64,000 nt of DNA, from NCBI GenBank assembly GCA_020137815.1, contig CM035360.1, positions 248,001 through 312,000 of the forward strand, in the 5' to 3' direction. Positions 3,080 through 63,200 of this stretch are shown one piece after another; the first letter of the stretch is position 1; the number at the start of each line of letters is the position of its first letter. Made by a program: the position numbers and the translations under genes. This stretch comes from Hormiphora californensis. Taxonomy: Eukaryota > Animalia > Ctenophora. The notes beneath the pieces are model-generated. The model was not told the origin of the DNA. It did no database searches and saw nothing but the letters and a program-made list of their open reading frames with translations.

Positions 3080-3086
3080 CTTCAAA

Positions 3087-34085: not shown

Positions 34086-34124
34086 TTTCAGAAAGCCATG
34101 TACAAGTGACCACCCCTGGAAACT

Positions 34125-36502: not shown

Positions 36503-38158
<1,656 letters not shown>

Positions 38159-39775: not shown

Positions 39776-40147
39776 GGTAGGCGGTAAATGTTAACCAGAT
39801 CTGAGAGAAAACGTACGTGCAAAACTACGTTTTTGCCCATAACTCAGCCATTTCTTGACCAATTTGCAAGATCTTGGGTGCGTTGGAAAGAGGACATTGA
39901 GATCTTTCAAATGAGCCCAATAAAACTAAAATCGGCGGAAAATGCGCGGCGTCATGGCGCAAAATGCGCGTTTTCGCCACCACGCCGCGCAATTTGCGCC
40001 AATTTTCATTTTCTTGAGCTCATTTGAAAGATCTCAATGTCCTCTTTCCAATGAGCCAAGGATTTTGCAAATTGGTCAAGAAATGGCTGAGTTATGGGCA
40101 AAAACGTGCGAAATTCTCACAGATCTGGTTAACATTTACCGCCTACC
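39776..40147. mobile_element. Palindromic MITE, GG termini, 9-bp TSD (Mutator-like), inserted in the RT domain
   Basis: TIR ggtaggcggtaaatgttaaccagatctg; TSD tggtggatg at 39767-39775 and 40148-40156. Confidence 0.9.
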
Positions 40148-41481
40148 TGGTGGATGGAGTGAGGTCACCCTGGGCCGAGGTACTTAGTGGGGTTGCCCAG
40201 GGTAGTGTGCTCGGACCACTTCTTTTCCTCATATATATTCTTGACCTGGAGTCAGTGCTAGACGGTAGCATGTGTCTAACTTTTGCTGACGATACTAAGT
40301 TGGTAAAAGCTATTTCAGATATGTCTAGCCAGGCGTGCCTACAGAACGATCTTTTAAGTGTGGCAGAATGGGCAAAGAAGAACAATATGAAGTTACATGA
40401 GGATAAATTTCAGCTCTTGAGCTATAGTCTGAATAAGTCTGCTATCCTCAGACAGTTTCCTTTCGCAGCTGAAGTGTTTTCATATACTACAAGCTCAGGT
40501 GTGCAGTTGACCCCCGAACCTGATGTTCGTGATCTGGGTGTCCAGATGTCTGCAGATGGGTCATGGACGAGGCACATTTCTATCATAGTGCGGAAGGCTT
40601 CCCTCTTGAGTGGCTGGATATTCAGCGTTTTTTCGGGACCGTTCTCCGGAGGTTATGGTACAGCTTTTCAAGTCCTTGGTCAGGCCTATTCTTGAGTACT
40701 GTTGCCTAGTCTGGAATCCTTCCAAGGCTGGTGATATCAAGGCTATTGAGAATGTCCAACGTTGTTTCACCAGACGTCTTGATGGTATGCAGGGTCATGA
40801 CTATTGGGATAGACTGAAATTGCTCAATCTTATGTCCCTTCAGCGTCGGAGACAGCGCTACATTCTGATTCATGTGTGGAAGACGATTCATGGTTTTGTA
40901 CCTAACTCTGCCAACCTAGTATTTCAACAGCACGCTAGACTGGGTATGCGGATAGTCCCACCACCTTACCCCTATAGAGCAGAAACGAAAAGAGCTAATC
41001 AATTTCACTGCTCATTTGGTCCAAGAGCAGCTCATTTATGGAACACTCTACCTGCTGCTGTCAATTCTTGTGTGAGCTTGAATCAGTTCAAATCATCATT
41101 GGGCAATTACTTGACAGGATTTCACGATCGTCCTCCAGTCAGAGGGTACCCGCCACTTCCAAATGACCTTTCGCCTCAATGTGCTGTGCTGTGCTGATGA
41201 GTGTGAGTGTGAGGGATAGTTTTTCAACTTGATTTTATTTAGGTGGACCCATTCAGGGAAGGCCTGTTTCTTTATAAATAAAACTTTAATTGTAAACTTG
41301 TAAACTTGTAAACTTGTTTTCCCTGAAAAATCGCAAATTTGCCTCAAAAATCTCAAAAATCCCACGTTTTTTAGCCAAAAATCGAAAATCTCAAAAATCC
41401 CAGCTACCCTGAAAATCGCCAATGAGGCATGAGGTTCTTGCGGCAGGCCCCCCCCCCCCCCCCCCCCCCATATGTATATAT

Positions 41482-42830
41482 CACGGCGTGCCTGGTGAAA
41501 TTTTAACACGACCTAGCATGCTGCGGGAAACCACCACTTGTACGTGGTAGCTGAGGGTCTACAGAATGGCGCTACGGTGCGGGAAAAAACATTCCATTGC
41601 CTAAAAAAATTTTTTTTACGCTTTTTTGATTTGGGTCAAAATTGGGTATATTAAACGTGGTCCCGAAAAATCCATAATGACTTAGCACACGAAATATGTC
41701 ACCCCCACCTATTTTTGCACGTAGAATCGATTGCCGTTGAAGTCGAATCTCTAAAATGACTGTAAAATGGTCAAAAGTTGATTTTTTTACCATTTTTTGG
41801 AGGTTTTTGGCCCCTAAACCATTGAAAACGTTGAGATAGGAATTTGGAACTAGTGCCAATCGTTAAAATGGTCATTTTTCTACCAAGAACCAAGTTTTCG
41901 TGTATATCCGATTTATGGTTAGATTTGGGCAAATTGTTGAAATCTGCCAACTAGGAGAACCGTAACTTGATTTTTTCCTTTTTTTATATTTTGGCATTTT
42001 TGACAAACTTCGGATTGAAATGGCCAGTCGGGACCATGCTTAAGTTGTTTATGGGACAATTTCCGACTAAAATCCAAGATTTCATACCAATCCAATAACA
42101 GATCGTTGATTTATAGAAAATTTAAGTAGGCAAAACGGTCAAAATAAGCAAGAAAAGTTGTTATTTTGACCATTTTGCCTACTTAAATTTTCTATAAATC
42201 AACGATCTGTTATTGGATTGGTATGAAATCTTGGCCTTGGATTTTAGTCGAAAATTGTCCCATAAACAACTTAAACATGGTCCCGACTGGCCATTTCAAT
42301 CCGAAGTTTGTCAAAAATGCCAAAATATAAAAAAGGAAAAAATCAAGGTACGGTTCTCCTAGTTGGCAGATTTCAACAATTTGCCCAAATCTAACCATAA
42401 ATCGGATATACACGAAAACTTGGTTCTTGGTAGAAAAATGACCATTTTAACGATTAGCACTAGTTTCAAATTCCTATCTCAACGTTTTCAATGGTTTAGG
42501 GGCCAAAAACCTCCAAAAAATGGTAAAAAATCAACTTTTGACCATTTTACAGTCATTTTAGAGATTCGACTTCAACGGCAATCGATTCTACGTGCAAAAA
42601 TAGGTGGGGGTTACATATTTCGTGTGCTAAGTCATTATGGATTTTTCGGGACTACGTTTAGTATACCCAATTTTGACCCAAATCAAAAAATGGTAGAAAA
42701 AATTTTTTTAGGCAATGGAATGTTTTTTCCCGCACCGTAGCGCCATTCTGTAGACCCTCAGCTACCACGTACAAGTGGTGGTTTCCCGCAGCATGCTAGG
42801 TCGTGTTAAAATTTCACCAGGCACGCCGTG
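41482..42830. mobile_element. 1.35-kb near-perfect palindromic foldback, CAC...GTG termini, 4-bp ATAT flanks (Chapaev-like)
   Basis: cacggcgtgcctggtgaaattttaacacgacc... mirrored at the right end; ~665-bp arms with ~13-bp spacer near 42148-42160. Confidence 0.88.
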
Positions 42831-43194
42831 ATATAGGAATTCTTTATACTAATATTTTATAGCTAGAGACTATGCTATAGTTCTTGAAGTCAGGCCACAC
42901 CTGCCCTAGTGACCGATTCAACGCAGGAGCTGTTCTATTCTTTTTCAGTAGGGCGGGGCCTCATCGCCATAATTTTGTTGTTGTTTAATGGGGGGGGGGC
43001 TTGCTAAAGAGGAGAAGAAACTGCTATTTTCTCCCAACTTTCGGCTATCGAAGGAGAGCAAGAACCACTTGTAAACAGAGAGGAATCTAGCAATTGTAAT
43101 TGTGCAACTAATAGTTGCCAACTAAGAGAGCCAAGGAGAATTCGGGGGAATCAGATGCTAACCTCCATGACAGAGTAGCTGCTGGCTGACAATT

Positions 43195-43479: not shown

Positions 43480-43918
43480 TCACTCTCTCTCTCTCTCTCT
43501 CTCTCTCTCCCATCTCTACAGGTGTCTTCTGTCACGTGTTGCGGTGATCTCTGTTCTTCTCGAGATGGTGGATATGATAATGACAGTCCGGTGTCTGTCA
43601 CCCTTATTTTTATAGCTCCGCCTCCATAGCTCATTTCTTAAGTTCTCGCTCAGTTAGTTAATACATGAGTTTTTTTGGTAGGCTGAGACATGTCTGTTTA
43701 GACTAGGAAGCGGCGATTATATCGAATCGAGAACAAAATATCAAATATCGCCGGTTCCTAGTTTAGACATCACAATCTTTCCTTGTCCAGCCATATTCAA
43801 GGCCGCATACCCTGCTTGTTGAGTAACCCTCGCTCGATAATACCCTGCAAGAATTGAAATAAAAAGTATTTCAACTTACAAAAATTCCCGGCTGTTATTT
43901 TTATGTAGTGTGGTAGAT

Positions 43919-44767
43919 ATGCGGCTGTTTTCTGTGTTCCTGGTGGTGCTGTTGTCTGGCTGCTCTGGCTGCTCTGGTGATTGGGGCAAACTGACAACTG
44001 AGAGTTATAGAGGTAGGTATAATACATGGTCGAAACTCGGAACCCTATTTCAATTTACAGTGCTGCTTGTAGTCAAATTACCGTTATGAAAATACAGTAA
44101 GGAGACGCGCACGGTGCACAACGCGCGGCAAAAAGTTCATGTGTCAGCACGTACTAGCGCCCTGATTGGTCACGGTTGCGCGTCGTCTTACTGTATCTTC
44201 GTTTTCCATTACCGTTTTCCCACTACAAGCGACCGTGTTACTGGAGCCCCAATTTTCTTGACGTTTTCCCTTTTCTCAGATCAGACAAGCTCAAACAGCT
44301 GTGCCACTGTTCCAGCCGAGAAAAGGTGGAGTTTCAGGAATGAGACACTTGTTATTAAAATAAAACGTGATGTCAATCAGAAAACTATCGAATCAGATGA
44401 GTTGAATAAGGCAGGAACCATTACAGCCGTGGTAGCAAATAAAACGATTGAGATTACAATATCTGAGAAAAGACTATCAGTCAGTTGTTATGGTAATTGC
44501 GGGGCTATGCATGGCGATTTGTCCAGACTTGTTCATTACCAGGAAAACTTCCTCACTTTAAAGTCACAGCAGAGTGGTCATGTGTTTGATAAAATTGAGA
44601 TCGAATGGAGAAGCAGGATCAATCAGAACTCGGAAGATTATGTCGTAACAGTCCTTGGTCAGTGTCCATTCAATTCTTCTAACTATGGGAATAAACTTGA
44701 TATTAAAGTTGATGGAAATCTCTTTGATTGCGTCGAGGAAGTGGAAGAGGAAGAAAAGGGTCAGTAA
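43919..44767 (+). CDS. Secreted-protein array copy 1 (type A), exons 43919-44012 and 44280-44767, 193 aa
   Basis: MRLFSVFLVVLLSGCSGCSGDWGKLTTESYR; donor ag|gtaggt; acceptor ttttctcag|at; phase 1 joins track ORF 44114-44767. Confidence 0.85.
44058..44237. mobile_element. ~180-bp insertion with imperfect TIRs and TTA duplication in the intron of copy 1
   Basis: caattta|cagtgctgcttgtagt...actacaagcgaccgtg|ttactgg; paralogous introns read caatttactgg. Confidence 0.75.
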
Positions 44768-44864
44768 ATAAATAAATATTATATGCCAGTAACTATGCTA
44801 GTACTTTTAGACGCCGTCTAGCAGAAAAGGTAGTACTTAGTAGGGTATAATACCCGGTATATCC

Positions 44865-44936
44865 CTGTATGGCGGCGCCCATACCCCAATTTGATTCTCG
44901 ACAGTGCGCTCAGATGGGGTCGGCGGCGCCAGACAG
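44865..44936. mobile_element. 72-bp CTGT...ACAG MITE with 8-bp TSD; co-duplicated copies at 53019-53090 and 56314-56385
   Basis: gtatatcc flanks both sides at 53011/53091 and 56306/56386 (one mismatch in this copy). Confidence 0.82.
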
Positions 44937-45560
44937 GTATATCATACCCTATAAGGTAAAAGGTAAAAGGTGCTGTATATATAATAAGGTAAAAGTTTGG
45001 TATTGTCGGTACACTGTAGGCAGGGACTTTAGCCTAAGGTTTAGGGGCTGATGGGACTGGGTCTCTGGGCCCTGGCGGCATGAAGTTCTTATCAGTTATG
45101 ACCAGAGTCCCTTGTTTTAGGGAGTCTGCTTAATGTTTTATCATTTGTCTCTGCTCCAAATTCAATCACATATTGTTTGATACTACATCTGCATATGTGC
45201 TGCTACTGCTAGTGCTATTAATATTCCTGATTCAACTTCTTCATTCAACTTTATGATTCCTTATTCTCTATTTGATCCATTTCCACGTTGCAGAAGCTGC
45301 TTCATTTGATATGTTGCACTGTAGGCTACTACACTATAGTATCTGAAAAGTTACTCCACCGTAAGTAGGATATTGAACAAGGGTCAAACGCAGGATTTTA
45401 ACGTTTTTCCGTACGGCTTCTTCAGAAACTGAACTCAAATTAATTTAAAGTAGTGTTGAAGAAACGGCGAAACGTCAAAATCCCGCGTTTGACCCTTGTT
45501 CAATATCCTATAGGATAGGCCTACTCACGGCGGAGTAACTTTTCAGCTACTATAGTGTAG

Positions 45561-46971
45561 CTGAAGGTGCTCGTCACCTAGGTGCTTCCATAGGATCTGA
45601 GACCTTCAAGCAAACATTTGTTTCTGCTGCAGTTTCCAAATGGTGCGTTGAGCTGGAAAATCTTGTGGCTATTGCCAAAGCCCATCCTCATTTGGCGTAC
45701 AGCAACTTTGTGAGAAGCTTCCGATTCAAGTGGGCCTTTCTCCAGCGAACAGTTCCAGACATCAGTGATCTGTTTGATCCGCTTGAACACACCATCCGTT
45801 CACAGTTGATTCCATGTCTGGTGGGCCGTCAAGTGTCCGACCTAGAACGGGAGATACTGGCACTCCCCTCTGGGAAAGGTGGAATGGGAATTGAGAACCC
45901 CGTCAAAACCTCTGACAGATCATACAGCAACTCCCGAGCATTGACGAAGCCCCTTGTTGATTTGATACTATGCCGTAACGAAGAAGAAATAGAAATGGCT
46001 CTAGTGGAGAAGAATGCAAGAGAGGCAAGGAACAAGATAGCAAAGGAGAATGAGGACCACCACTCAGACACTCTCAAAGAGTTACTCACTAGAATCAGAT
46101 GCCCAAAGCTAGTGAGATGTCTAGAGCTCGCTGGAGAGGCCGGAGCATCTGTATGGCTCACGGCAACACCCTACCCTCACCTGGGCTTCGAACTGAATCA
46201 ATTGGAATTCGTCGACTCAGTGGCACTGCGATACGGGTTTGAGGTCAAAGATTTGGGCGCGACATGCGTATGTGGAAAACCAAACAATGCGGACCATACC
46301 TTGTCCTGTTCAACCGGGGGCTATTCCATCCTCCGTCACGACAACATCAGGGACCTAATGGCGGAGATATGCTCGTATGCGGGCCTCAAAGGTGTGGAAA
46401 CAGAGAAGCTACTTCTCCCTTGTCCGGACGGCATACACTTTCACCCTTCGGCAAACACAGCCCCTGATGCAAGGATGGATGTGGTCGCACTTGACATGTG
46501 GCGAAAAATGCAGCTGGCTCATATGGATGTGCGAATTTTCCATGCCAATTCGCCCTCCTATATCGACACGCCCCTCGACCAACTCTACCGAAGAAACGAG
46601 GCTAGCAAGAAGCAGTCGTACGGAAAACGTGTACGAGAAGTTGAAGGGGGTGCCTTCTCTCCGCTGGTTATGAATACAGCAGGTGGAATAGCCAATGAGT
46701 TCCAAAAGGTGCTAAAGACTCTCTCACACCGAATCTCCACAAGAACCGGAGAACCGTATAGTGAAGTTATGGCGCACCTGAGGACGAGAATACGATTCTC
46801 CCTCCTGAGATCATGCCTTATTGCATTAAGAGGAAATCGGAGGAAGATTGCTATCACTAGTCTAACAAATACTGAACTGGTGACCTGAGGAAGAGAGGAA
46901 TGAGAAGAACTTGAGGATCCGAGGATGATTTGATCCGAGGATGAATTGATTTATTGTTTTGTTTCTTTCTT
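45561..46971 (+). mobile_element. 5'-truncated CRE-like non-LTR retrotransposon with 15-bp TSD
   Basis: TSD gctactatagtgtag at 45546-45560 and 46972-46986; empty site at ~53729-53743; T-rich 3' end. Confidence 0.88.
45665..46888 (+). CDS. C-terminal part of CRE-like ORF: RT thumb region, CCHC finger, restriction-like endonuclease
   Basis: LP..KGGMG; GASVWL; CVCG-x6-H-x3-C; RHDNIRD; RMD; DVRI; KKQSY; FSPLV...AGG. The frame continues upstream (HLGASIG). Confidence 0.85.
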   Translation: MAIAKAHPHLAYSNFVRSFRFKWAFLQRTVPDISDLFDPLEHTIRSQLIPCLVGRQVSDLEREILALPSGKGGMGIENPVKTSDRSYSNSRALTKPLVDLILCRNEEEIEMALVEKNAREARNKIAKENEDHHSDTLKELLTRIRCPKLVRCLELAGEAGASVWLTATPYPHLGFELNQLEFVDSVALRYGFEVKDLGATCVCGKPNNADHTLSCSTGGYSILRHDNIRDLMAEICSYAGLKGVETEKLLLPCPDGIHFHPSANTAPDARMDVVALDMWRKMQLAHMDVRIFHANSPSYIDTPLDQLYRRNEASKKQSYGKRVREVEGGAFSPLVMNTAGGIANEFQKVLKTLSHRISTRTGEPYSEVMAHLRTRIRFSLLRSCLIALRGNRRKIAITSLTNTELVT

Positions 46972-47701
46972 GCTACTATAGTGTAGTAGCCTACAGTGCA
47001 ACATGTCGTTGATCCCCGCCCTGGTCGCCACCACAATCATTGCTTCATTTGAGTTCGAATCGAACTCACTAGCCCCGTGCGTCCTCTCCTAGAATATTCG
47101 AAATTATTATCTGAAGGGCATCGGACGGGGATGGGTAAGTGGGAAAGGGTGAAAGCAGGATGAGACGAGAGAATCGGGAGGGGGGAGGGCCAGAGAGATT
47201 TGATGTGGAGTGGTAGAGCGAGCCCTTTTGGAGGATGAAAGAGCGAGGAAGGGAAACGAAATGAAAAACCCCCCTCCTCCCTCTCTCTCTCCCTCTCTCT
47301 CTCTCCTTCTCTTCAGGACACAGGTGTTTACTGTCACGTGTTGCGGTAATCTCTGTTCTAGCTCTATCGTCCATCTATTATATATGATTGCTCTATAAGT
47401 ATATAATGGCTCATTTTTTTTGCCCACTACCTGTTAAATAGTAGTAGTTTTTTTTCTCGATAGGCTGAGAGATGTCTGTTTAGACTAGGAAGTTCGGGGG
47501 AACCGGCGATTCCTAGTTTACTTTTAGATTGTTTAGACATCACAATCTTTCCTTGTCCAGTCAGATTCAAAGCCGCATACCCTGAGGGGTCCCACTCACT
47601 CGATAATACTATGCAAGAGTTGTAACAAAAGTATGCCAACTTAGGGGCCAACTTACAGAAGTTGCCGGGTATGTAAGAGCTCTTTATGTAGTGTGGTTGA
47701 T

Positions 47702-48250
47702 ATGAGACTGTTTTCTGTGTTCGGGTTCGTGCTGTCATCTGGTTGTTTTGCTGATTGGGACGAACTGACAACTGAGAGTTATAGAGGTAGGTGTTATACA
47801 TGGTCGGATCTCTATTCCAATTTACTGGAACCATAACTGGCAAACCAAACCATAACTGGCAGATCTCAACCGAAAGATTTTTCTCAGATTATACTACCTC
47901 AAACAGCTGTGCTCCTGTTCCAGTCAAGAAAAGGTGGAGTTTCAGGAATGAGACACTTGTTATCAAAATAAAACAGGATATCGATCTTAATGAACTTAAT
48001 GGTACCATATCAGAGCAGTCTCAGAATCATTCTTTTTTGATAATGATTGAAACAAATCGACTTGGTTCAGTCCGCTGTTCATGTTATGGTGATCAAAAAA
48101 GTTATCGGGAATCAGTTTTCTTTAAAGACGTGGATAACTTCGTAGAGTTCACTTTCGAGCCAGCGAAGGGTCTTAACGAACAGAGGATTGATATCCAGTG
48201 GAAAAGCAGGATCTCGGAAGATTTTATCAAAACTAAACTTGCTCGTTGTC
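47702..48250 (+). pseudogene. Secreted-protein array copy 2 (type B), exons 47702-47786 and 47888-~48250, truncated by L2 insertion
   Basis: MRLFSVFGFVLSSGCFADWDELTTESYR; KRWSFRNETLVIKIK...IQWKSRI; similarity stops where L2 RT begins. Confidence 0.8.
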
Positions 48251-49945
48251 AAAAGGGCAGCCGCCAGCTAATGATTACCTTGAACGGAATTCTCTTTTGG
48301 GCAAGCACCAGTCTGGTTATCGTGTTGGGCACAGCTGTGAAACTCTGTTAGCCAGCATGTTTGATGATGTATTAGGCGAGATGGATAAAGGAAATGTAGT
48401 GGCTCTCATTGTTTTGGACATGAGTGCTGCATTTGATACAGTGGATCATCGAAAGTTGTTGGAGGTGTTGCAGAATCGGTTGGAGTTGATGGCGATCCTC
48501 TTCAATGGTTTAAGAGCTACCTGAGTTCCAGATCTTCAGAGTCTCTGTGGGTGATTTGTCTTTCGGAAACCCTGGCCTTACTATGTGGAGTACCCCAGGG
48601 GTCCCTTCTTGGTCCAATTTTGTTTCTACTATACATTGAAGCTGTGCACATTGTGGAGCCTTATGGTCTTCGGATAAACATACGCGGATGACTCCCAGCT
48701 CTATGTGAGTCTGGTTCCTACGGTTTCTACTGGCTGGTCGGAGGCAAAGGTGGATATTGAGGAATGTCTGGCAAAGGTGAAGAGGTGGATGGTAGGACAG
48801 TGGTTGAAGTGCAACGAGGCTAAGACAGAATTCATCCTCCTTGGAAAACGCAGTTCGTTAAGTAAAGTCACTTTCGATCCAGTAATCAACTTCGGTGGAA
48901 CTGAAATCTTCCCTAGTGAATGTAGTGGAACAGATGGTAAGACACTAGGAATCTCTTGGATCACAATCTAAATCTTGAACGACAGGTTAATAATGGGAGG
49001 AACAGTGTGGACTGATATTACGGAATCTTTGGCAATTACACAAGTGTTTTGATGTTACAACAAAGATCATGTTGGTGAAACAGTTGATCATTTCCAGAAT
49101 TGATTACAGCAATATTTGTATTGTGGACTTCCTGGCCGAGTTCTGAGCGGGCTCCAGAAACTTCTCAATGCCTGTGTTTCGATTTGTATTTAACCTCCAT
49201 GGACACCAGGACAACTATATGGAGTATTTCAGGCAGTGTCATATTTTACCGATCTCCTACAGGCTGGACTTCAAGCCTGTTGATTGCCTATAAAATAGTC
49301 ATGGAACAGCCCCGTGTTATCTCCAGGATTTGGTGCCACGTGATGAGACTTGGGAACCTCTAGGACTACGAGGATGACTAATGTTCCGGATCCCTATAGG
49401 TTAAAACATCCAAAGATGACCAGTATTAATGCCAACTCTAAGTTGAGACGTAGGAGGTTATCGTATTCCTGCCTTCTGTCTGGAATGAGCTCCCTTGAGC
49501 TCAGGTCAATCCCCAACGTGGAAACCTTCAAAACCCGGCTGAAAACACATCCTTCGTTGGTGCATTTGGAGTGGGTGATGGGGAACCCATGGCTGAGTTG
49601 TAATGTTTTTTGTAGTTGTGGGGCCTGCGGGCAATCAGTGTCATCCTCTCTCTAGCCATGTTATTATTTCACTACCTAGTATCCTTTTTCCTAGCAGGTG
49701 TAAGTAAGTGTTTTTGAATTTATATCCAGGTTTATGGGACCAGTTATTCCTTCAGTTTTATAAGTCCAGTTAGTTTAGTCTTACAATATCTGTTCTTTTT
49801 TCACCAGAGTGTTCGTGTGTGTCATATATTTAATCGAGGATATCCCGCTCTGATGACTCGTCGGAGCATTGCCAATATTTGACATGTTTCCGTCGGGTAT
49901 GGGCGGTATATAAGCGCGGAATATTATTATATATATTATTTTATT
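48250..49945 (+). mobile_element. 5'-truncated, frameshifted L2-clade LINE
   Basis: HQSGYRVGHSCET, LDMSAAFDTVDH, GVPQGSLLGPILF, YADDSQLY, KTEFILLG, FKTRLKTH; AT-rich tail. Confidence 0.85.
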
Positions 49946-50222
49946 AGATTTCATGTTTTAGCTTCACATTAACTTTTGTACTAGAACACAAGGAATATTC
50001 TATTCAGAATTTTGATTTTGGTAGAAAAACACAAGGATTGTTTCTTTCCAAATTTTCGAATGGAAATTTTTCCTTTTTATGAGATTTTTGAGAAAAATTT
50101 GCGGGTTTTCCCTGAAAATCGGAAATTTGCTCAAAAATCCCACGTTTTTTAGCCAAAAATCGAAAATCTCAAAAATCCCAGTACCTGAAAATCGCCAATG
50201 AGGCATGAGTTCTTGCGGCAGG
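49946..50222 (+). mobile_element. Partial second copy of the host MITE, lacking the CR1 insertion (empty site)
   Basis: Continuous match to 33882-34047 joined directly to 41317-41447. Confidence 0.88.
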
Positions 50223-50475
50223 TTCTTTTTCAGTAGGGCGGGGCCTCATCGCCATAATTTTTTTGTTGTTTAAGGGGGGGGGGGCTTGCTAAAGAGGAGA
50301 AGAAACTGCTATTTTCTCCCAACTTTCGGCTATTGAAGGAGAGCAAGGACCACTTGTAGACAGGAGGAATCTAGATGTAATTGTGCAACTATGAGAGCCA
50401 GGGGGAATTCGGGGAGTCAGATGCTAACCTCCACGACAGAGTAGCTGCTGGTTGACAATTACTATTTCTAAAGAG

Positions 50476-50542
<67 letters not shown>

Positions 50543-50595
50543 TCTCTTCTCTCTATCTCTTTATCTCTATCTCTCTCTCTCCTTATCTCTCTCTT

Positions 50596-50649
<54 letters not shown>

Positions 50650-51145
50650 TCCTCTCTCTCTCTCTCTCTCTCTCTCTTCCCATCTCACAGGTGTTTTCTG
50701 TCACGTGTTGCGGTGATCACTGTTCTTTCTCGAGATAGTGGTTATGATAATGACAGGCCGGTGTCTGTCACCCCTATTTTATTTTTATAGCTCCCGCCCA
50801 TAGCTCATTTCTTAAGTCTCGTGCTCAGTTAAGTGTAGTTAATACATGAGTTTTTGTTTGGTAGGCGCCCAGAAATGTCCTGTTTAGACTAGGAACAGCG
50901 GCAGATAATCGAAAACGAGAACAAATATCAAATATCGCCGGTTCCTATTTAGACAATCACATCTTTTCCTTGTCCAGCCATATCAAGGCCGCATACACCT
51001 GGCTGTTGAGTAAACCCCCTGAGGGGATCCCACTCATTTACTCACTGAGGGGTACCTCACTCGATTAATACCCTGCAAGAATTGAAATAAAAAGTATTCC
51101 AACTTACAAAAGTTCCCGGCTGTTATTTTTAGTAGTGTGGTAGAT

Positions 51146-52929
51146 ATGCGGCTGTTTTCTGTGTTCCTGGTGGTGCTGTCATCTGGTTGCTCTGGTGATT
51201 GGGACAAACTGACAACTGAGAGTTATAGAGGTAGGTATAATACATGGTTGAAACTCGGAACCCTATTTCAATTTAGGGGGGGTGACACGTAACACTTTGT
51301 AACATGTAACGCGCACAAAAAGTTTTCTGCACATGTTACAAAGTGTTACAAAGTGTTACAAAATGTTACAAAGTGTTACATATTTTATATGGCTTAAAAC
51401 CGGTCCGTACACCCGATTTTGAGCTGATATGTTGCATTTGGTGACATTGACACCTAGTGCGTGCGAGATCGAGCTCGCACATAGGTGTCCGCTCCGCCCC
51501 CTAAAAAAGGGTCGTGTCTTTCAAGCCAAATTGCACGTGATCCACTGGACCGATTTGCATCCGGTTTGTCGCAAAAGACTACAAATTGGTCCTAGTTTAC
51601 TGGAAAATACCCGAGAAGCTTGTCTGTCAACAGGAAGTGGGTCAAAATTGACACTGAAGTCAAATCTATAATCTGGCTTCCGAGCCTTTTTGCACCACTC
51701 CCAGACGGTGTAGAATGCATCTGAGGGTATCAGAAGATAGGCTGAACTCTTGTAAGTACTGGAAAATACCCGGCATTAATAGCTGATGCTAATTGCATCA
51801 ACATATCTCCCAATATCTTCTAAATTGCATGGGCGTAGTGCAGAAACTCTCGGAAGCCAGATTATAGGTTTGACTTCAGTGTCAATTTTGACCCACTTCC
51901 TGTTGACAGACGAACTTCTCGGGTATTTTCCAGTATGTTAGGATCATTTGTAGTCTTTTGCGACAAACCGGATGCAAATCGGTCCAGTGGATCGCATGCT
52001 ACATCCCTTGAAAGAAACGACCCTTTTTGAGGCGGAGCAGACACCTGTGTGTGAGCTCTTGGTCGCGCACGGTGTCTATGTCACCAAATGTTGCATAAAA
52101 CACCATGAAATAGTGTCTTAGGTTCAGCCGAATACGAATACGTAAAATTTATTTCGGTATTTTACGCTAGAAAAAATTTTTTGGTCACCTTTTGTAACAC
52201 TTAGTAACAATTTGTAACACTTTGTAACAATTTGTAACACTTTGTAACAATTTGTAACACTATGTAACACTTTGTAACACTATGTAACACTTTGTAACAC
52301 TATGTAACACTTTGTAACATGTAACGTGCACAAAAAGTTTTCTGCACATGTTACAAAGTGTTACAAAGTGTTACGTGTCACCCCCCCCCCCCCCCCCCCA
52401 ATTTACTGGAGCCCCAATTTTCTTGACGTTTTTCCTTTTCTCAGATCATACAACATCAAACAGCTGTGCTCCTGTTTCAGTCAAGAAAAGGTGGAGTTTC
52501 AGGAATGAGACTCTTGTTATTAAAATAAAACGTGATGTCAATCCGACAACTATCGAATCAGATGAGTTGAATAAGGCAGGAACCATTACAGCCGTGGTAG
52601 CAAATAAAACGATTGAGATTACAATATCTGAGAAAAGACTATCAGTCAGTTGTTATGGTAATTGCGGGGCTATGCATGGCGATTTGTCCAGACTTGTTCA
52701 TTACCAGGAAAACTTCCTCACTTTCAAGTCACAGAGTGGTCATTACGAACATGCATTTGATATCGAATGGAGAAGCAGGATCAATCAGAACTCGGAAGAT
52801 TATGTCGTAACAGTCCTTGGTCAGTGTCCATTCAATTCTTCTAACTATGGGAATGAACTTGATATTGAAGTTGATGGAAATCTCTTTGATTGCGTCGAGG
52901 AAGTGGAAGAGGAAGAAAAGGGTCAGTAA
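51146..52929 (+). CDS. Secreted-protein array copy 3 (type A), exons 51146-51230 and 52445-52929, 189 aa
   Basis: MRLFSVFLVVLSSGCSGDWDKLTTESYR; same phase-1 intron; joins track ORF 52348-52929. Confidence 0.85.
51276..52397. mobile_element. 1.1-kb foldback element with poly-G/poly-C termini and (tgtaacactt)n subterminal repeats, in the intron of copy 3
   Basis: G7-tgacacgtaacactttgtaaca ... tgttacgtgtca-Cn; caattta duplicated on both sides; inner inverted arms ~51436-51682 and ~51850-52090. Confidence 0.88.
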
Positions 52930-53905
52930 ATAAATAAATAAATATTATATGCTAGTACTTTTAGACGCCGTCTAGCAGAAAAGGTAGTACTTAGTAGGGT
53001 ATAATACCCGGTATATCCCTGTATGGCGGCGCCCATACCCCAATTTGATTCTCGACAGTGCGCTCAGATGGGGTCGGCGGCGCCAGACAGGTATATCCTA
53101 CCCTATAAGGTAAAAGGTAAAAGGTGCTGTATATATATAATAAGGTAAAAGTTTGGTACTGTCGGTACACTGTAGGCAGGGACTTTAGCCTAAGGTTTAG
53201 GGGCTGATGGGACTGGGTCTCTGGGCCCTGGCGGTATGAAGTTCTTATCAGTTATGACCAGAGTCCCTTGTTTTAGGGAGTCTGCTTAATGTTTTATCAT
53301 TTGTCTCTGCTCCAAATCCAATCACATATTGTTTGATACTACATCTGCATATGTGCTTCTACTGCTAGTGCTATTAATATTCCTAATTCAACTTCCTAAT
53401 TCAACTTCCTGATTCAACTTTATGATTCCTTATTCCACGAGCTCTATTTGATCCATTTCCACGTTCCACAAGCTGCTACATTTGATATGTTGCAATGTAG
53501 CCGTACTATAACACTATAGTATCTGGAAAGTTACTCCGCCGTGAGTAGTAGGATATTGAACAAGGGTCAAACGCAGGATTTTAACGTTTTTCCGTACGGC
53601 TTCTTCAGAAACTGAACTCAAATTAATTTAAAGTAGTGTTGAAGAAACGGCGAAACGTCAAAATCCCGCGTTTGACCCTTGTTCAATATCCTATAGGATA
53701 GGCCTACTCACGGCGGAGTAACTTTTCAGCTACTATAGTGTAGTAGCCTACAGTGCAACATGTCGTTGATCCCCGCCCTGGTCGCCACCACAATCATTGC
53801 TTCATTTGAGTTCGAATCGAACTCACTAGCCCCGTGCGTCCTCTCCTAGAATACTCGCCAGTTCTATTATTCTGCAGGGCGTCGGCTTGTAATCTTGTAA
53901 TCTTG

Positions 53906-54064
<159 letters not shown>

Positions 54065-54083
54065 TCTCTCTCCCTCTCTCTCT

Positions 54084-54121
<38 letters not shown>

Positions 54122-54248
54122 GGTGTTTACTGTCACGTGTTGCGGTAATCTCTGTTCTAGCATAAGTATATAATGGCTCATTTTTCGCCCACTACCTGTT
54201 AAATAGTAGTAGTTTTTTTTTCTCGATAGGCTGAGAGATGTCTGTTTA

Positions 54249-54500
54249 GGGCCCAGTTAGAGATTTTACTACTGGAGCCAGGTTCTTGATGCCAGCTGGC
54301 GCCAGAGAACTACTCTGCTGCTGACACTGTCGCGCGGCGCTACTTTCAATGCAATTCACATCGGAATCCCTGCTAGTCATCGAAGATGTCGCGCGCAGCA
54401 TGGTTCATAAGGATTCTCCCAGCTAACTCCTGGTGCCAGTTTACAATCCTGGTGCCAGTTTCCAATCTGCAACTGGAGCGTAAGACTAGGAAGCTCGGAG
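54249..54500. mobile_element. ~250-bp insertion with imperfect TIRs and TWA flanks (PIF/Harbinger-like)
   Basis: tta|gggcccagttagagatt...aatctgcaactggagcg|taa; paralogues read tctgtttagactagg. Confidence 0.65.
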
Positions 54501-54608
54501 GAATCGCCGATTATATCGAATCGAATCGAGAACAAAATATCAAGTATCGCCGGTTCCTAGTTTACTTTTAGATTGTTTAGACATCACAATCTTTCCTTGT
54601 CCAGTCAG

Positions 54609-55417
54609 CACAATTCATCAGGAAATGAGACCTAATTAGAAAAAATGCCCGAAGTGGGGTTCATTTAGTCCTAATTAGGAACTTCCTCATACAACTTGGC
54701 ATGAAAATGTCCCGATTTATAGATAGAGAATCGTTCAAGCTACCACCTGGCATTTTATTTTAGGCCAAAACTTTATCAGGCTTGTCGCTAGGAAGCCTCA
54801 AACTTTTGGACATATATGACCCTCTGGGCCTCAAAGGGTTAAGGACGTTCAACCTCGACCGAGTCCCCCAGCAAAACGAACGGTTGTGTGACTTAAAGGG
54901 GACCTCTGGGAACTACGCAGGGCCGTGGGGGAAAAGATATGAAAGTAGCCAAAGGAGAAAATCGCATTTAGGGCAAAAAACGCCATTTTAACAATGTTGC
55001 CGTGGATTTAGAGTTCCAATTCCAGCGGCAATCGATTCGGCTGGAGTGACTTGATTTTGGTTGAAAAATAAATAGATTGGAAAATTTGGAATGTAGAATT
55101 TGGTCATTTTTCTCACATTACATTCCAAATTTTCCAATCTCAAATCTATTTTCTTTTTCGACCAAAATCAAGTCACCCCAGGGTTTTTTAACACGCCGAA
55201 TCGATTGCCGCTGGAATTGGAACTCGAAATCCACGACAACATTGTTAAAATGGCGTTTTTTGGGTTTTTTGCCCTAAATGCGATTTTCTCCTTTGGCTAC
55301 TTTCATATCTTTTCCCCCACGGCCCTGCGTAGTTCCCAGAGGTCCCCTTTAGATCACACAACCGTTCGTTTTGCTGGGGGACTCGGTCGAGGTGGAACGT
55401 CCTTAAGGGGCACCGTG
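54609..55417. mobile_element. Composite insertion: CAC...GTG ends with TCAG duplication, containing a TTAA-flanked palindromic MITE (~54843-55402)
   Basis: ccagtcag|cacaatt...caccgtg|tcagattc versus empty site ccagtcagattc at 47557-47568; inner ttaa|ggacgttc...gaacgtcc|ttaa. Confidence 0.75.
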
Positions 55418-55565
55418 TCAGATTCAAAGCCGCATACCCTGAGGGGTCCCACTCACTCGATAATACTATGCAAGAGTTGTAACAAAAGTATGCCAACTTA
55501 GGGGCCAACTTACAGAAGTTGCCGGGTATGTAAGCAGTAAGAGCTCTTTATGTAGTGTGGTTGAT

Positions 55566-56225
55566 ATGAGACTGTTTTCTGTGTTCGGGTTCGTGCTGTC
55601 ATCTGGTTGTTTTGCTGATTGGGACAAACTGACAACTGAGAGTTATAGAGGTAGGTGTACATGGTCGGATCTCTATTTCAATTTACTGGAACAATAACTG
55701 GCAGATCTCAACCGAAAGATTTTTCTCAGATCAGACAACATCAAACAGCTGTACGCCTGTTCCAGTCGAGAAAAGGTGGAGTTTCAGGAAGGAGACACTT
55801 GTTATTAAAATATCGGGTGATATCAATCTGACAACTATCGAATCAGATGAGTTGAATAAGGCAGGAACCATTACAGCCGTGGTAGCAAATAAAACGATTG
55901 ATATTACAATATCTAATAAAACATTATCAGTCAGTTGTTATGGTACTATCAAGGTTAAGCAAGGCGATTTGTCCAATATAGTTAAAGGCCAGGACAACTT
56001 TCTAGTGCTCACTTTCAAGTCACAGAGTGGTCATTACGAACATGCATTTGATATCGAATGGAGAAGCAGGATCAATCAGAACTCGGAAGATTATGTCCGT
56101 AACAGTCCTTGGTCAGTGGTCCATTCAATTCTTCTAACTATGGGAATGAACTTGATATTGAAGTTGATGGAAATCTCTTTGATTGCCGTCGGAGGGAAGT
56201 GGAAGAGGAAGAAAAGGGTAGTAAA
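55566..56225 (+). CDS. Secreted-protein array copy 4 (B-type 5' end, A-type 3' end), exons 55566-55650 and 55730-~56225; single-base insertions after ~56097 may be sequence errors
   Basis: Same signal exon and intron phase; extra bases relative to copy 3 (gtccgtaac, gtggtcc, tgccgtc) lie just upstream of the low-quality stretch. Confidence 0.7.
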
Positions 56226-56629
56226 TAAATAAATAAATATTATATGCTAGTACTTTTAGACGCCGTCTAGCAGAAAAGGTAGTACTTAGTAGGGTATAAT
56301 ACCCGGTATATCCCTGTATGGCGGCGCCCATACCCCAATTTGATTCTCGACAGTGCGCTCAGATGGGGTCGGCGGCGCCAGACAGGTATATCCTACCCTA
56401 TAAGGTAAAAGGTAAAAAGGTGCTGTATATAATATAATAAGGTAAAAGTTTGGTACTGTCGGTACACTGTAGGCAGGGACTTTAGCCTAAGGTTTAGGGG
56501 CTGATGGGACTGGGTCTCTGGGCCCTGGCGGTATGAAGTTCTTATCAGGTATGACCAGAGTCCCTTGTTTTAGGGAGTCTGCTTAATGTTTTATCATTTG
56601 TCTCTGCTCCAAATCCAATCACATATTGT

Positions 56630-57530
56630 TTGATATACATTGCATTTTGGTTTTTCGAGTGCTATTTAAATTCCAATTTTAACTTCCTAATTCAAAATTC
56701 CTATTCAACTTTAGATTCCTTTTTCCCCGAAACCTATTTTCCTTTTCCCCGTTCCACGCTTTACTTTAATGTTTTTTTTAATGTAGCCGTACTAAACACT
56801 ATATATCTGGAAAGTTATCCCCCCGTGATTAGATTTAACAAGGGTCAAAACGCGGGTTTTTTAAACTTTTTTCCGTAGGTTTTAAAACCAACTCAATTAA
56901 TTTAAAATATGTTTAAAAAAACAAAAACCCCCTTTTCCCGTTCAAACCTTAGGGGCCAAGGGAAATTTTTCACTATATAATTAGAGCCCTTTTTAACAGG
57001 TTTTCCCCCGTTTGGTCCCCCCCCTTTTTTCCCTTTTTTTTTTAAATTTGTTTTAAAACCACACCCCGTTCCCGCCGGAAATATCTGAGCTTTTTCGGGG
57101 GTTTTGTTGTTAACTTTACAATTTTTTCCCCCAAAAATTTTTTCCCGTTTTCCCCCCTCTTTTTTTCTTTTACCCCCTTTTTCCCTTTTTAAATTTTCCC
57201 TTTTTTCTCCCTCTTTCCTTTTTTTCTTCTCTTTCCTCTTTAAATTTTTTCTTCTTTTTTTTTCCCCCGGGTTCCCCCCCCCCCTTTTTTTTCCCCCTTT
57301 TCCCTTCCCCCTTTCCCCTTTTCCCCTCCTCCCCTCCTTTTTTCCCCCCTTTTTCTCGGGGGGTAATCCGTTTGTTTGGCCCCATCTATTATATATGATT
57401 TTTTCAAAAATTTATAATCTTTTTTTTTTCCCCCACCGTTAAATAGTGTAGTTTTTTTCCGATAGGCGAGAGATGTCTGTTTAGACTGGATTTTTTGGGG
57501 AAAGGCGTTTTATTTTTCTTTTAATTTTGT
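56630..57530. other. Corrupted, homopolymer-smeared copy of ~53330-54250
   Basis: Collinear remnants (tatctggaaagtta, aacaagggtcaaa, catctattatatatgatt, gttaaatagt) between clean matching flanks. Confidence 0.8.
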
Positions 57531-57706
57531 TTAGACATCACAATCTTTCCTTGTCCAGTCAGATTCAAAGCCGCATACCCTGAGGGGTCCCACTCACTCG
57601 ATAATACTATGCAAGAGTTGTAACAAAAGTATGCCAACTTAGGGGCCAACTTACAGAAGTTGCCGGGTATGTAAGCAGTAAGAGCTCTTTATGTAGTGTG
57701 GTTGAT

Positions 57707-58454
57707 ATGAGACTGTTTTCTGTGTTCGGGTTCGTGCTGTCATCTGGTTGTTTTGCTGATTGGGACAAACTGACAACTGAGAGTTATAGAGGTAGGTGTA
57801 CATGGTCGGATCTCTATTCCAATTTACTGGAACAATAACTGGCAGATCTCAACCGAAAGATTTTTCTCAGATCAGACAACCTCAAACAGCTGTGCTCCTG
57901 TTCCAGTCGAGAAAAGGTGGAGTTTCAGGAAGGAGACACTTGTTATTAAAATATCGGGTGATGTCAATACGACAACTATCGAATCAGATGAGTTAGATAA
58001 GACAGGGACCATTATAACAGATGTGGGCCAAGATACACCGATTGTCATTGAGATTACAATATCTCAATCTGAATTACTATCAGTCCGTTTTGGAAACTTG
58101 GTTTATGTATATAGCGATTTGTCCGATTTTGTTCATGGCCAGGACAACTTTCTCACTTTAAAGCAGAGTGGTCTTTACAAACATGCGTTTGATATCGAAT
58201 GGAGAAGCAGGATCGATCAGAACTCGGAAGATTATGTCGTAACAGACCTTGGTCAGTTTCCATTCAATTCTTCTAACTATGGGAATAAACTTGATATTGA
58301 AGTTGATGGAAATCTCTTTGATTGTGTTGAGGAAGTGGAGCAGGAAGAAAAAGGTCAGTCGATCAATTATTTACTAATTAGGACTAAGCTTCTAGTTCCG
58401 GGGTGCGAAATTTCTTGCGCGAACAGAGGAGCGAGACGTGCCCAAGGCTTCTAG
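57707..58454 (+). CDS. Secreted-protein array copy 5 (type B), exons 57707-57791 and 57871-58454, 222 aa with C-terminal extension
   Basis: MRLFSVFGFVLSSGCFADWDKLTTESYR; phase-1 intron; the open frame runs into track ORF 58023-58454. Confidence 0.82.
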
Positions 58455-59035: not shown

Positions 59036-61964
59036 TGCTGCTACCTGATTCCAGATTAATCTGCAGATTGTTCAAACTCTTTATCGCATAGAATAGAGTT
59101 GATATTATGGAAGCTGAACAACTATCTTTACCTTGCAAGGCCTTGAAGCTTTTAGCTCCTTCATACCGTCAATTTACAGTTCTACTATAATACTACTGGT
59201 TACTTGTCGTTCATACTTTCTAGACAGTAGTAGGCAAGCTGGCAAGTTCTTGTGTGGTATGAAATCGAAGGCAATCAACAGTATTGGTTCTGGTTCTGGA
59301 CCAGTATGTATGTACTGTCAGGCCAATGCTCTGACCACAGTTCTCTGACACTCTGACAGCTAATGTAGCTACATACATGTAGTAGACAAGTTCATGAAAT
59401 ATAAAATAAGGTAGACAGATCATTGGGCTCTAAACTAAATCATTTGAGAGGTAACTGCTGGCGTCGTATACCAATGACTCTTAAAACCGTTCCTAGCTAT
59501 ATTATAGAATCTGAGGTGAGGCCCCCTAGCCTAAACACACAAAGTGGCCTGGGTCTCCTTGCTTAGAGTTCCTTAGACCTATCTTAGACTCCTTCCTAGA
59601 CATACCTTATTGCTATACTTAGACATGTCCTGTTGAGTCATGATGATACCATAAACTTCATCACGCCATTTTAAAACACCTTCCTCTTATTAGTGCTGTT
59701 GAGGGTGTTAGTTTTAGCATCAATTAAATTACAACTCTACGACCACTAATGTTCACCCTATTAAAACAGTGCCCCCATCTTACTCGAGATAGTTCCAATG
59801 ACTCATCGGGCAAATATTTGGGATTTTGTTTGGATTTCCTTCTTCGTCCTTCTTTTGTCTGGATCACATGCTGCCCAAGGTAAAGATCCTCATAAAACCA
59901 GTATCTTGCCTTGATCGACCCTCTTGTATCTGGAAGGGTCTGAGGGGTATCTAATGGGGTTTGATGGGTATCTAGTAGGGTCTGAGAGGTATCTAATAGA
60001 GTGTGATTGGTATCTAAGAGGGTCTGAGGGATATCTAGGAGGCTCTAAGGGGTATCTAGAAGGGTCTGAGGGAAATCTAATGGGGTATGAGGGTAACAGT
60101 AGAGTCTGATAGGTATCCTGGAGGGTTTTAGGGGCATCTAGAATTGGGTCTGAGGGGTTTCTAGGATGGTAGTAGGGTGATATAGGGAGCTATGAGGGAT
60201 ATTTAGGAAGCTCTAAGGGGTATCTAGAAGGGTCTGAGGGGAATCTAATGGGGTATGAGGGTACCTAGTAGAGTCTGATAGGTATCCTGGAGAGTTTTAG
60301 GGGCATCTAGAAGGGTCTGAGGGGTTTCTAGGATGGTAGTAGGGTTATATAGGGAGCTGTGAAGAATATTTAGGAAGCTCTAAGGGGTATCTAGAAAGGT
60401 CTGCGAGGAGTATAATGGGTTCTGAGGGTATCTATAAAGATCTGACCTGTATCTAGCAGGGTCTGAGAGGTGTCTAGGAGGGTACTAGGGGATTGTAGTA
60501 GGCTCTGAGAGTCTGAGGGGTATCGTATATAATGCTCCATGGCATATCTAATAGGCTAATACAGTTATGCACACATCTAATTATCCAATTAACCAATTAA
60601 CTAAATGAGATAGGAACTTCTCATGGGTGTCTACCCCCACTTATGCGAGGACGCTACACATTTTAGTGTCCTTATTTTCATCTTTACTCCTATTTTGAAA
60701 TGATAAGTATTTAGCACTCATGCGCAGCATAAATTATCCAATTAATTCAATTATCTCGATTAGTATTGGAGATATCGACTCAGTAATGGTCTCTACCCCC
60801 TATAATGTGATGATTCTGCACATTTTAGTGTCCTTGTTTTTGTCTCTACTCCATTTCTAAGCTAAGTTATGGGAATATCCAGTTAGTGCCAATTAAGGCC
60901 AATTATAGGGGTCTTCCCCACCACTTCAGATTTAAAACTTTTTTTTGGTGCATAAGGACCTCTTAGACTAACTATTAGTGAAGGAATTAGCCGTCCCCCC
61001 CAAAATTCCTGGTTCACTCGATTATTTACCCAAATCACATGTATTAAATGCTGCTACCTGATTCCAGATTAATCTGAAGATTGTTCAAACTCTTTATCGC
61101 ATAGAATAGAGTTGATATTATGGAAGCTGAAGCGTATGGGCTGAACAACTATCCTTGCAAGGCCTTGAAGCATAAACTTTTAGCTCCTTCACACCGTCAA
61201 TTTAAAGTTCTACTACTGGTTACTTGTCGTTCATACTTTCTGGACTGTAGTAGGCAAGCTGGCAAGTTCTTGTGTGGTGTGAAATCGAAGGCAATCAACA
61301 GTATTGGTTCTGGTTCTGGACCAGTATGTATCTAGCTACATACATGTAGTAGACAAGTTCATGAAATATAAAATAAGGTAGACAGATCATTGGGCTCTAA
61401 ACTAAATCATTTGAGGGGTAGCTGCTGGCGTCGTATACCAATGACTCCTAAACCCGTTCCTAGCTATATTATAGAATCTGAGGTGAGGCCCCCTAGCCTA
61501 GACACACAAAGTGGCCTGGGTCTCCTTGCTTAGAGTTCCTTAGACCTATCTTAGACTCCTTCCTAGACATACCTTATTGCTATACTTAGACATGTCCTGT
61601 TGAGTCATGATGGTCCATCAACTTCATCACGCCATTTTAAAACACCTTCCTCTTATTAGTGCTGTTGAGGGTGTTAGTTTTAGCATCAATTAAATTACAA
61701 CTCTACGACCACTTGCACTGTTGTTCACCCTATTAAAACAGTGCCCCCATCTTACTCGAGATAGTTCCAATGACTCATCGGGCAAATATTTGGGATTTTG
61801 TTTGGATTTCCTTCTTCGTCCTTCTTTTGTCTGGATCACATGCTGCCCAAGGTAAAGATCCTCATGAAACCAGTATCTTGCCTTGTTCGTCATTCCTCAT
61901 GACCAGTATCTTGCCTTGATCCTGATTCCTAATAAGACCAGTATCTTGCCTTGTTCGACCCTCT
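59036..61964 (+). repeat. ~880-bp direct duplication (59036-59924 and 61049-61964) around a degenerate gggtctgaggggtatcta minisatellite block (59925-60525)
   Basis: Both copies begin tgctgctacctgattccagattaatctg and end gtatcttgccttgWtcgaccctct. Confidence 0.9.
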
Positions 61965-62095: not shown

Positions 62096-62574
62096 TCTGC
62101 ACCAAGATTTCAGAACACAGTTCCCTCGTTTTCGATTGGAACTTGAGTGATGGCCCTCTTATCATCAAGATATCTCAGTCTCTCAGTGGTGCTGGTTGGA
62201 AGGGTGAATCAGAGGTACAACTTGGAGAACTCGCCAAGATTTGTCTCCTCAAAGATTCAAACGGTCTATCAATTAGAATCAACACCGAGACAGCTTGCAG
62301 CTTCAATGACATCAGCAGTGGCGAGTCTTGGAACACCTACCCTTTATCTGATTTGTGGAAGTCAGGTGCTAAACACGTGATTGAAATACTTTATGACCAA
62401 GACAGAAAAAGTCTGGAAGTGGAATGGAACAACTCAGAATCACAGAAACTCCTCATCTCGGAGGTGCTTCAAGACATGCCTCTTGAGGGGTCTGTGAGGG
62501 TCATGGGAGCCGTCCTTGATTGTGTTTATGGGGTGGATGACAGTTTCATTGAGGGTAGGTTTACAGTTTTATAG
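62096..62574 (+). CDS. Terminal exon of a distant relative of the secreted-protein family (first exon not identified)
   Basis: Acceptor ttgtttcag|tc (phase 1) then CTKISEHSSLVFDWNLSDGPLIIKI...LEVEW...VMGAVLDCV, paralleling KRWSFRNETLVIKI...IEIEW...VDGNLFDCV. Confidence 0.7.
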
Positions 62575-63200
62575 TTGCGATGTATCTATCTGAATTTGAT
62601 GCTTGCATGGAATTGGATCTAAACTAACTTGTGGAAGCTAATTGCTGTAAATTGCAAGACGCATGGCTGCTTCTAGTCGAATGAAAGGGTGGTACGGGAT
62701 TAGTGGTTGGTAACAGCTCAGGAGATTTTAATTCAAGGTCTTATATGACACTTACGTCTTAGAATTTAGGGCAAGGTTTACGTTTTGTTGTCATTAAAAG
62801 GTCCAGGTAACAGGTTTTGTCTTTACTCAATTGTCTGTTTTCACATTTTATAACCTTCTCCCACCGTTTCAGGTTGTCTAGTTTTTATTCTTCTTCACAT
62901 TCACTCGCTACTCTCTGAGAGAATTGATCAAGAAGGGTACTAACTAGACAATAGTTGGCTGAGCTTGTGCTGTCTCGCGAGTGTCGTTAGGACTGTGATC
63001 AGGCATCTGACAGACTGCATGTGTGGGTTGTAAGGAATGAGCATGTGTGCAAGATGTGTGAGCATGTACAAGATGTGTGAGCATGTGGAGTACGTACTAC
63101 TTTACCTATAGTTCGAATTCCTTAACTGAGATATAAAGTTTTCTTTTAACTGTTCAGACTCGTAAAATGGGGGGTGAACTGTTGAAAAAAATGGACTTTT

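Follow-up and report, generated by a model that had tools for sequence, protein, structure and literature searches.

A tandem array of putative secreted-domain cassettes with variable cores, and a single-copy downstream exon, in the ctenophore Hormiphora californensis

A stretch of 64,000 nucleotides of the Hormiphora californensis genome (GenBank assembly GCA_020137815.1, contig CM035360.1, positions 248,001 to 312,000, forward strand; referred to below as the window) was analysed for a tandem array of five related, putatively secreted proteins. The window has a G+C content of 43% and is N-free; copies and exons were counted within it, up to its end at position 64000. From the sequence alone, an original prediction had described the array as five two-exon paralogues with a conserved frame and a hypervariable core, suggestive of diversifying selection. 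Judged from exon phases and junctions, each copy is better described as a 5' cassette (a signal exon and one domain exon of about 160 codons, termed exon A) than as a complete two-exon gene. A single exon (exon B), located 3.7 kb downstream of the array, can be joined in frame to three of the cassettes.

Results

The five cassettes

All five cassette copies were recovered at the positions first assigned to them, and no sixth was detected in the window by tblastn or by a six-frame hidden Markov model (HMM) search (Table 1). The motif KRWSFR.ETLVIKI was present in 5/5 copies, the four core strings quoted at the outset matched the DNA exactly, and the 3' flanks of copies 1, 3 and 4, described as near-identical, diverge by 0.9-3.3%. 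The signal exons (85-94 nt, phase 1) code for a hydrophobic leader and have an ATG and a GT donor in all five copies. The two-exon structure was right in that a phase-1 signal exon is followed by a second exon behind an AG acceptor, but the shared downstream exon had been overlooked. Copy 5 is likewise present, but its tail up to 58454 is likely intron read-through past the donor at 58354.

In copies 1, 3 and 5 exon A ends in a phase-1 GTCAGT donor. The donor is followed by an in-frame stop and then AATAAA in copy 1, and by a stop and AATAAA in copy 3; AATAAA is also found behind the donor position of copy 4, and is absent from the 600 nt after the donor of copy 5. Exon A of copy 2 is cut at ~48298 by a fragment of a long interspersed nuclear element (LINE), and its donor is lost. 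The LINE fragment is decayed and spans 48298-49600 (RVT_1 E 5e-5, below the Pfam cut-off).

A pyrimidine tract ending in CAG and resembling a splice acceptor is the only exact block of at least 11 nt common to the upstream DNA of all five cassettes. It is a candidate acceptor for a 5' untranslated exon or for leader trans-splicing. The 17-base core of the ctenophore spliced leader, as given in the available part of PMC8527503, occurred three times in the window (0.02 expected). Its two minus-strand occurrences lie within a palindromic element of the cassette spacers (45329-45560 and 53484-53764), on the strand opposite the cassettes.

Table 1. Positions of the cassettes, downstream exons and associated features in the window
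Feature	Position	Strand	Details
Acceptor-like pyrimidine tract and CAG	43778..43790	+	also at 47548, 50965, 54592, 57546
Cassette 1	43919..44759	+	alpha 5' lineage; signal exon 43919-44012, exon A 44280-44759, donor 44760, AATAAA 44767
Cassette 2	47702..48297	+	beta 5' lineage with a deeply divergent body; signal exon 47702-47786, exon A from 47888
Cassette 3	51146..52921	+	alpha; signal exon 51146-51230, 1214-nt intron, exon A 52445-52921, donor 52922, then stop and AATAAA (52929, 52937)
Cassette 4	55566..56217	+	mosaic; 5' end of beta type, middle similar to alpha, a core of its own, 3' end and flank similar to copy 3
Degraded assembly stretch	56640..57480		separates copies 4 and 5; this spacer is homologous to the others
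Cassette 5	57707..58353	+	beta; signal exon 57707-57791, exon A 57871-58353, donor 58354
Exon B	62096..62554	+	single-copy, phase 1-1, 153 codons, own signal exon absent
Exon C (predicted last exon)	62873..62943	+	acceptor and first five residues match P0001
Spliced-leader-like motif	34055-34071	+	17-base core match
Spliced-leader-like motif	45444-45460	-	17-base core match
Spliced-leader-like motif	53627-53643	-	17-base core match

Exons B and C and the splice junctions

Exon B gave a single tblastn match in the window. In spliced models copies 1, 3 and 5 all join exon B in frame, followed by the exon at 62873 (exon C); these three carry the comparison, the donor of copy 4 not being covered by contigs. 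The A exons and exon B are all of phase 1-1, so that any series of them is in frame. The donor of the copies departs from consensus at +3 (GTCAGT), whereas the other six donors examined read GTAGGT, and the homology of copies 1 and 3 to copy 5 stops exactly at the sixth base of the donor. A direct duplication of ~0.9 kb (88%; 59036-59917 and 61049-61889) lies within the intron predicted to separate copy 5 from exon B.

Exon B appears to be a distant paralogue of exon A, as indicated by shuffled global alignments (Z 6.2 and 7.4; 0/1000 shuffles as good), exon phase and length. Other signals between the two were weak: hhalign returned a probability of 2% (E 0.025), and an HMM built in the window scored exon B at E 2.9. 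Beyond its first five residues, exon C matches the tail of the homologue P0001 (described below) in shifting frames only, and its tail is therefore likely unconstrained. The best 19-residue hydropathy (1.69) falls in this tail of unconserved frame, and no clear transmembrane segment was seen within the window.

Homologues in a relative

Two homologues, and no others, were retrieved in four large searches: P0001 (EukProt gene model sb/3464702) and P0002 (sb/3471329). One of 366, one of 712 and one of 234 candidates were retained, and HMMER on 1.84 billion representatives returned P0002 only; the eukaryote coverage of the libraries is unstated. The style of the sb/ identifiers is presumably that of Pleurobrachia bachei gene models. 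No mention of these identifiers (with 'Pleurobrachia') was found in the literature searched, and both models are unannotated and have no Pfam match.

As modelled, P0001 comprises an A fragment, junk, A and B, and includes a repeat-derived stretch. It joins A directly to its homologue of exon B, and the spliced model from the window matches both of its junctions in frame. P0002 consists of a signal sequence and A, and ends two residues beyond the donor position, like copies 1 and 3. Since the first 37 aligned residues of P0001 are identical to the end of P0002, the relative has at least two cassettes, one of them upstream of the cassette linked to B; in this upstream cassette the P0001 model uses a donor at the junction position. 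Identity to the relative is 52-60% for A and 74-79% for B (74% to P0001 by BLAST). Copies 1, 3, 4 and 5 are mutually 71-89% identical and closer to one another than to P0001 or P0002, which indicates that homogenisation or expansion took place separately in each array.

Mosaic structure of the copies

The cassettes fall into two 5' lineages, {1,3} and {2,4,5}, whose proximal upstream DNA is 21-26% apart and whose first introns are 29-35% apart. Within lineages, copies 1 and 3 are 3-9% apart in non-coding DNA, and copy 2 is 0-2% apart from copies 4 and 5 in upstream DNA while its body is ~50% identical in protein. In the upstream DNA and exon 1, 35 sites separate copies 1 and 3 from copies 4 and 5, and none support other splits; copy 5 is the odd one out over codons 32-59 (14 sites), as is copy 1 over codons 100-114 (9 sites). 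Up to about codon 31 copy 4 resembles copy 5, and from there to codon 59 it resembles copies 1 and 3; a core of its own comes next, and the remainder, flank included, follows copy 3. Differences were clustered at p<=0.003 in 5/6 pairs. The copies have likely traded pieces of the variable middle, as these tracts suggest.

Coding sequence had been said to diverge faster than the adjacent non-coding DNA. This applies to the 3' flank only: the proportion of non-synonymous differences (pN) in the core is 0.18-0.38 for pairs 1-4, 3-4, 1-5 and 3-5, and is equalled by the upstream DNA and intron 1 between lineages (21-35%). Synonymous divergence (dS) is also raised in the core (copies 1-5, 0.50, vs 0.06 and 0.14 at the ends). 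Together with the mosaic tracts, this means that much of the 'hypervariable core' is explained by ends that were homogenised and tracts that were moved. Old conversion tracts, which the original prediction had named as its own alternative, thus explain much of the pattern, and homogenised flanks can mimic diversifying selection. All 22 pairwise indels in exon 2 were in multiples of 3, vs 0/15 upstream, where some 1-bp gaps may be assembly errors; the pairs are not independent.

Several insertions were noted around the cassettes. Palindromic inserts resembling miniature inverted-repeat transposable elements are located at 41477-42835 (upstream of copy 1), 51435-52090 (intron 1 of copy 3) and 54839-55406 (upstream of copy 4). 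The insertion at 45561-46971 has a target-site duplication of ~15 bp and an open frame of 449 aa (45539-46888), without Pfam match; by its motifs we take it to resemble a 5'-truncated non-LTR (long terminal repeat) retrotransposon with a restriction-like endonuclease.

Selection on the core

Likelihood fits were made on four sequences (copies 1, 3, 4 and 5, with copy 4 up to 56097 and copy 2 excluded), with no simulation control. Omega under M0 was 1.2-1.6 in the core, not different from 1, and 0.54-0.56 at the ends; the overall value was ~0.8. None of the pairs was significant by NG86. Comparison of M1a and M2a on one tree gave p values of 0.0014 and 1e-4, but these site tests on a single tree were not relied on, since their significance is inflated by tracts that differ in age. 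With tract-specific branch lengths, p was 0.28 on the MAFFT alignment and 0.036 on the codon-aware alignment, where 29% of sites had an omega2 of 3.3. The diversifying selection originally proposed is not established; omega is higher in the core than at the ends, and the evidence for positive selection is borderline and suggestive. Change in the core seems to proceed near the neutral rate or somewhat faster, with the reading frame protected. The broader picture, in which a secreted family keeps its frame under constraint and changes fast in the core, agrees with the hydrophobic N-terminus, the in-frame indels and the lower conservation of A relative to B.

Assembly errors and the sequenced samples

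The reading frame of copy 4 had been reported as frameshifted. At 56097/8 and 56118/9 the assembly has extra bases that none of the covering contig depth of the best-matching sample contains (absent from 156.4/156.4 in X2 and from 98.3/98.3 in X1), and the one at 56118 is likewise absent in X5 and X6; these two frameshifts are therefore assembly errors. The breaks near 56186-56217, in the last 30 bases, are uncovered by contigs. Within the degraded stretch between copies 4 and 5, the bin 56846-57139 had zero depth in 3/3 DNA runs. Contig depth was not taken as copy number.

Sample S1 contained four core types and two alleles of copy 2, and sample S2 at least five types, including those of copies 1/3, 2 and 4. 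In both S2 runs a recombinant contig was found with a copy-5-type loop, a copy-4 core and a copy-5-type 3' part. Another S2 contig carried a core matching no copy in the window, and 11/12 of its changed codons were non-synonymous among those listed (15/26 differences listed). For exon B in the sample comparison, 2/5 listed changed codons were non-synonymous.

Fold and possible function

No named domain had been recognised in the array proteins, and no Pfam match above the cut-off was obtained for them; the best match in a search of PDB sequences had E 0.1. Both A and B are predicted to be all-beta, from AlphaFold models of low confidence (pLDDT 41 and 47), and the terminal cysteines are conserved in the intact A copies and in B. 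Language-model features gave a weak VWD-clan lead for A (0.92, recognition 1259, 131 features shared) and LamG/CBM-type clusters for B (0.91-0.93, recognition 2377, better recognised than the lead for A); the leads in the B clusters were Sialidase-like CBM, and Laminin_G_3 in 10% of one cluster. The VWD profile PF00094 had no match in the array proteins, P0001 or P0002 in the Pfam search.

In a structural search with the pLDDT-47 model of B, the best match was FAIM (Z 5.6, root-mean-square deviation (rmsd) 3.8, 87 aligned), and none among the matches listed reached Z 8. Entries bearing VWD (mucin, VWF, FCGBP) made up 9/50 of the listed matches (Z 3.8-4.5), and galectin-3 matched at Z 3.8 (rmsd 3.6, 85 aligned). 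With modest confidence, we read the array proteins as a secreted binding module, lectin-like more likely than VWD-like. In Mnemiopsis, candidate colloblast genes are enriched in lineage-specific, vWD and lectin genes, according to the available part of PMC6278862; by analogy, an adhesive role is plausible. No pointer to a toxin role was met among the results obtained. At 1984-2702, two open frames resemble exons of extracellular beta-rich domains and do not score against the A profile.

Other features of the window

An open frame of 211 aa at 10743-11378 has a RING finger (zf-RING_2 E 9e-12) behind a hydrophobic N-terminal part. Tandem arrays of 29-nt units (~139 overlapping copies listed) and of 23-nt units are located from 25085 and at ~2977-4400. 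Open frames at 34110-41197 resemble, by eye, pieces of LINE ORF1 and ORF2 (endonuclease and reverse transcriptase).

Discussion

The explanation that we rate a little above even is that the front half of a gene predicted to encode a two-domain secreted protein was duplicated in tandem; copy 5 is predicted to splice to exon B, and the upstream copies are likely short one-domain variants. Unequal crossing-over would have generated the cassettes, and gene conversion would keep both ends of A alike while moving old and new core variants between frames. Copy 5 would then splice onto the single downstream B to give a two-domain secreted form, and the upstream copies would end just past the donor to give secreted one-domain variants. 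The product may be an all-beta protein with an extracellular binding role, most probably a recognition module of lectin-like or adhesive type, and its variable core would change ligand specificity. One-domain products upstream and a two-domain product last are favoured by the stop that follows the donor in copies 1 and 3 and by AATAAA in copies 1, 3 and 4, with no AATAAA in the 600 nt after the donor of copy 5.

Several observations weigh against this explanation. The splice and polyadenylation events are all predicted, and P0001 and P0002 are gene models and not transcripts, P0001 with its repeat-derived stretch. A stop after a phase-1 GTCAGT donor is expected by chance in 3/16 of cases, and AATAAA is located in a run of the (TAAA)n simple repeat. 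The donor is intact in copies 1 and 3, with the homology of copy 5 ending at its sixth base, as if it were still used. No contig spans the array, so that the order of the copies depends on an error-prone assembly, and the fold leads, VWD-clan for A and LamG/CBM for B, are weak and conflicting.

An intact donor would be accounted for by a single variable-constant gene, in which each cassette has its own 5' end (a promoter or a spliced-leader acceptor) and splices over the others to B. Its predicted products would be two-domain isoforms differing in the N-terminal domain, as in chelicerate sDscam-alpha and the clustered protocadherins. We regard this as possible and clearly less probable than front-half duplicates. 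The same phase-1 donor in copies 1, 3 and 5 joins all three to B in frame, B occurs once in the window and is better conserved than A, and an acceptor-like block precedes all five cassettes. The relative shares the layout, and the P0001 model uses the donor in an upstream cassette. In sDscam-alpha, moreover, cassettes consist of two exons with a leader, and retention of the intron behind the cassette is frequent (in the part of PMC4835542 available). What speaks against it is that a stop and AATAAA stand directly behind the donor in the upstream copies only, that this donor is off-consensus at +3 where the six others read GTAGGT, that conversion by itself could preserve it, and that no membrane anchor lies within the window. 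In H. californensis 56% or more of the cDNA reads are reported to carry a leader (PMC8527503), so leader addition could provide the 5' end of each cassette. A bolder form, which we consider speculative and a shade less probable again, is an independently evolved protocadherin/sDscam-like variable-constant gene built from an unnamed secreted beta domain. In it any cassette could come first, possibly selected through leader trans-splicing to the acceptor of that cassette and not through a promoter; B or a stop would follow, and conversion would swap the cores between cassettes and between individuals.

Copies 1-4 might also be silent duplication debris, or haplotypes placed in tandem by the assembler, with copy 5 and B the only gene. 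Assembly errors at the locus, the disruption of copy 2 and an overall omega near 0.8 fit this, as does the 3-9% non-coding difference between copies 1 and 3, which is of the order of ctenophore heterozygosity (~3.2% in H. californensis, PMC8527503). The core types in S1 and S2 nevertheless exceed one diploid locus unless the samples were pooled, open frames with in-frame-only indels were kept across deep divergence, and the relative shows the same layout, which together make debris or misplaced haplotypes improbable. We think still less of one long multi-domain protein, with A exons spliced in series (A-A-...-B) and internal signal exons skipped. It would be in frame in any series, given the common phase 1-1, and P0001 is modelled in such an order, but the ATG, the hydrophobic leader and its GT donor are intact in every cassette, and in copy 2 exon A is interrupted and its donor gone.

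Overall, the locus holds a real lineage-restricted family with an unusual layout of cassettes plus a shared exon and with recombining cores, apparently undescribed so far. The locus is compact and a candidate for encoding a secreted recognition protein that is polymorphic, with recombinant cores that differ between two samples. Ctenophore immune and adhesive repertoires have been surveyed via named domains (as described in the available parts of PMC11797021 and PMC6278862), and such surveys cannot see a family without a Pfam match. No report of a variable-constant gene design in Ctenophora was found in our literature search. If true, the reading of the array as an independently evolved variable-constant gene would place diversity-generating recognition in the earliest-branching animal lineage.

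Several known systems resemble the array in part. The ConA-like/LamG lectin-type beta-sandwiches and the VWD domains, both language-model leads, are comparable in size (~150-160 aa) and in being predicted all-beta, but differ in that no Pfam or PDB sequence match was obtained, the structural Z is at most 5.6 on a pLDDT-47 model, and the leads disagree. Membership of the Dscam or protocadherin families is ruled out by the absence of their domains: searches of Pfam gave no Ig, FNIII or cadherin match at E<=1 (four A exons and B) or at E<=0.01 (P0001 and P0002). The clustered protocadherins, UGT1 and GCNT2 likewise place variable 5' units before shared 3' exons and show species-specific duplication, and conversion among the variable units is stated for Pcdh and not for Ugt1 (in the part of PMC1885805 available). 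Their units are single first exons, they are vertebrate, and they have no sequence relation to the array, in which the upstream units have a stop and AATAAA behind the donor. The chelicerate sDscam-alpha genes have tandem two-exon 5' cassettes (a leader and one extracellular domain) before common exons, and a retained intron behind the cassettes (in the available parts of PMC4835542 and PMC9258826). The array differs from them in having no Ig/FNIII match, five cassettes only, no transmembrane or cytoplasmic part in the window, and splicing to B that is predicted. As in layouts with multiple variable 5' cassettes, the array has tandem 5' units with their own start and leader (5/5 signal exons) and a single-copy downstream exon in frame with copies 1, 3 and 5; if splicing from the cassettes to B is true, the variable-constant design of vertebrates and chelicerates would extend to Ctenophora.

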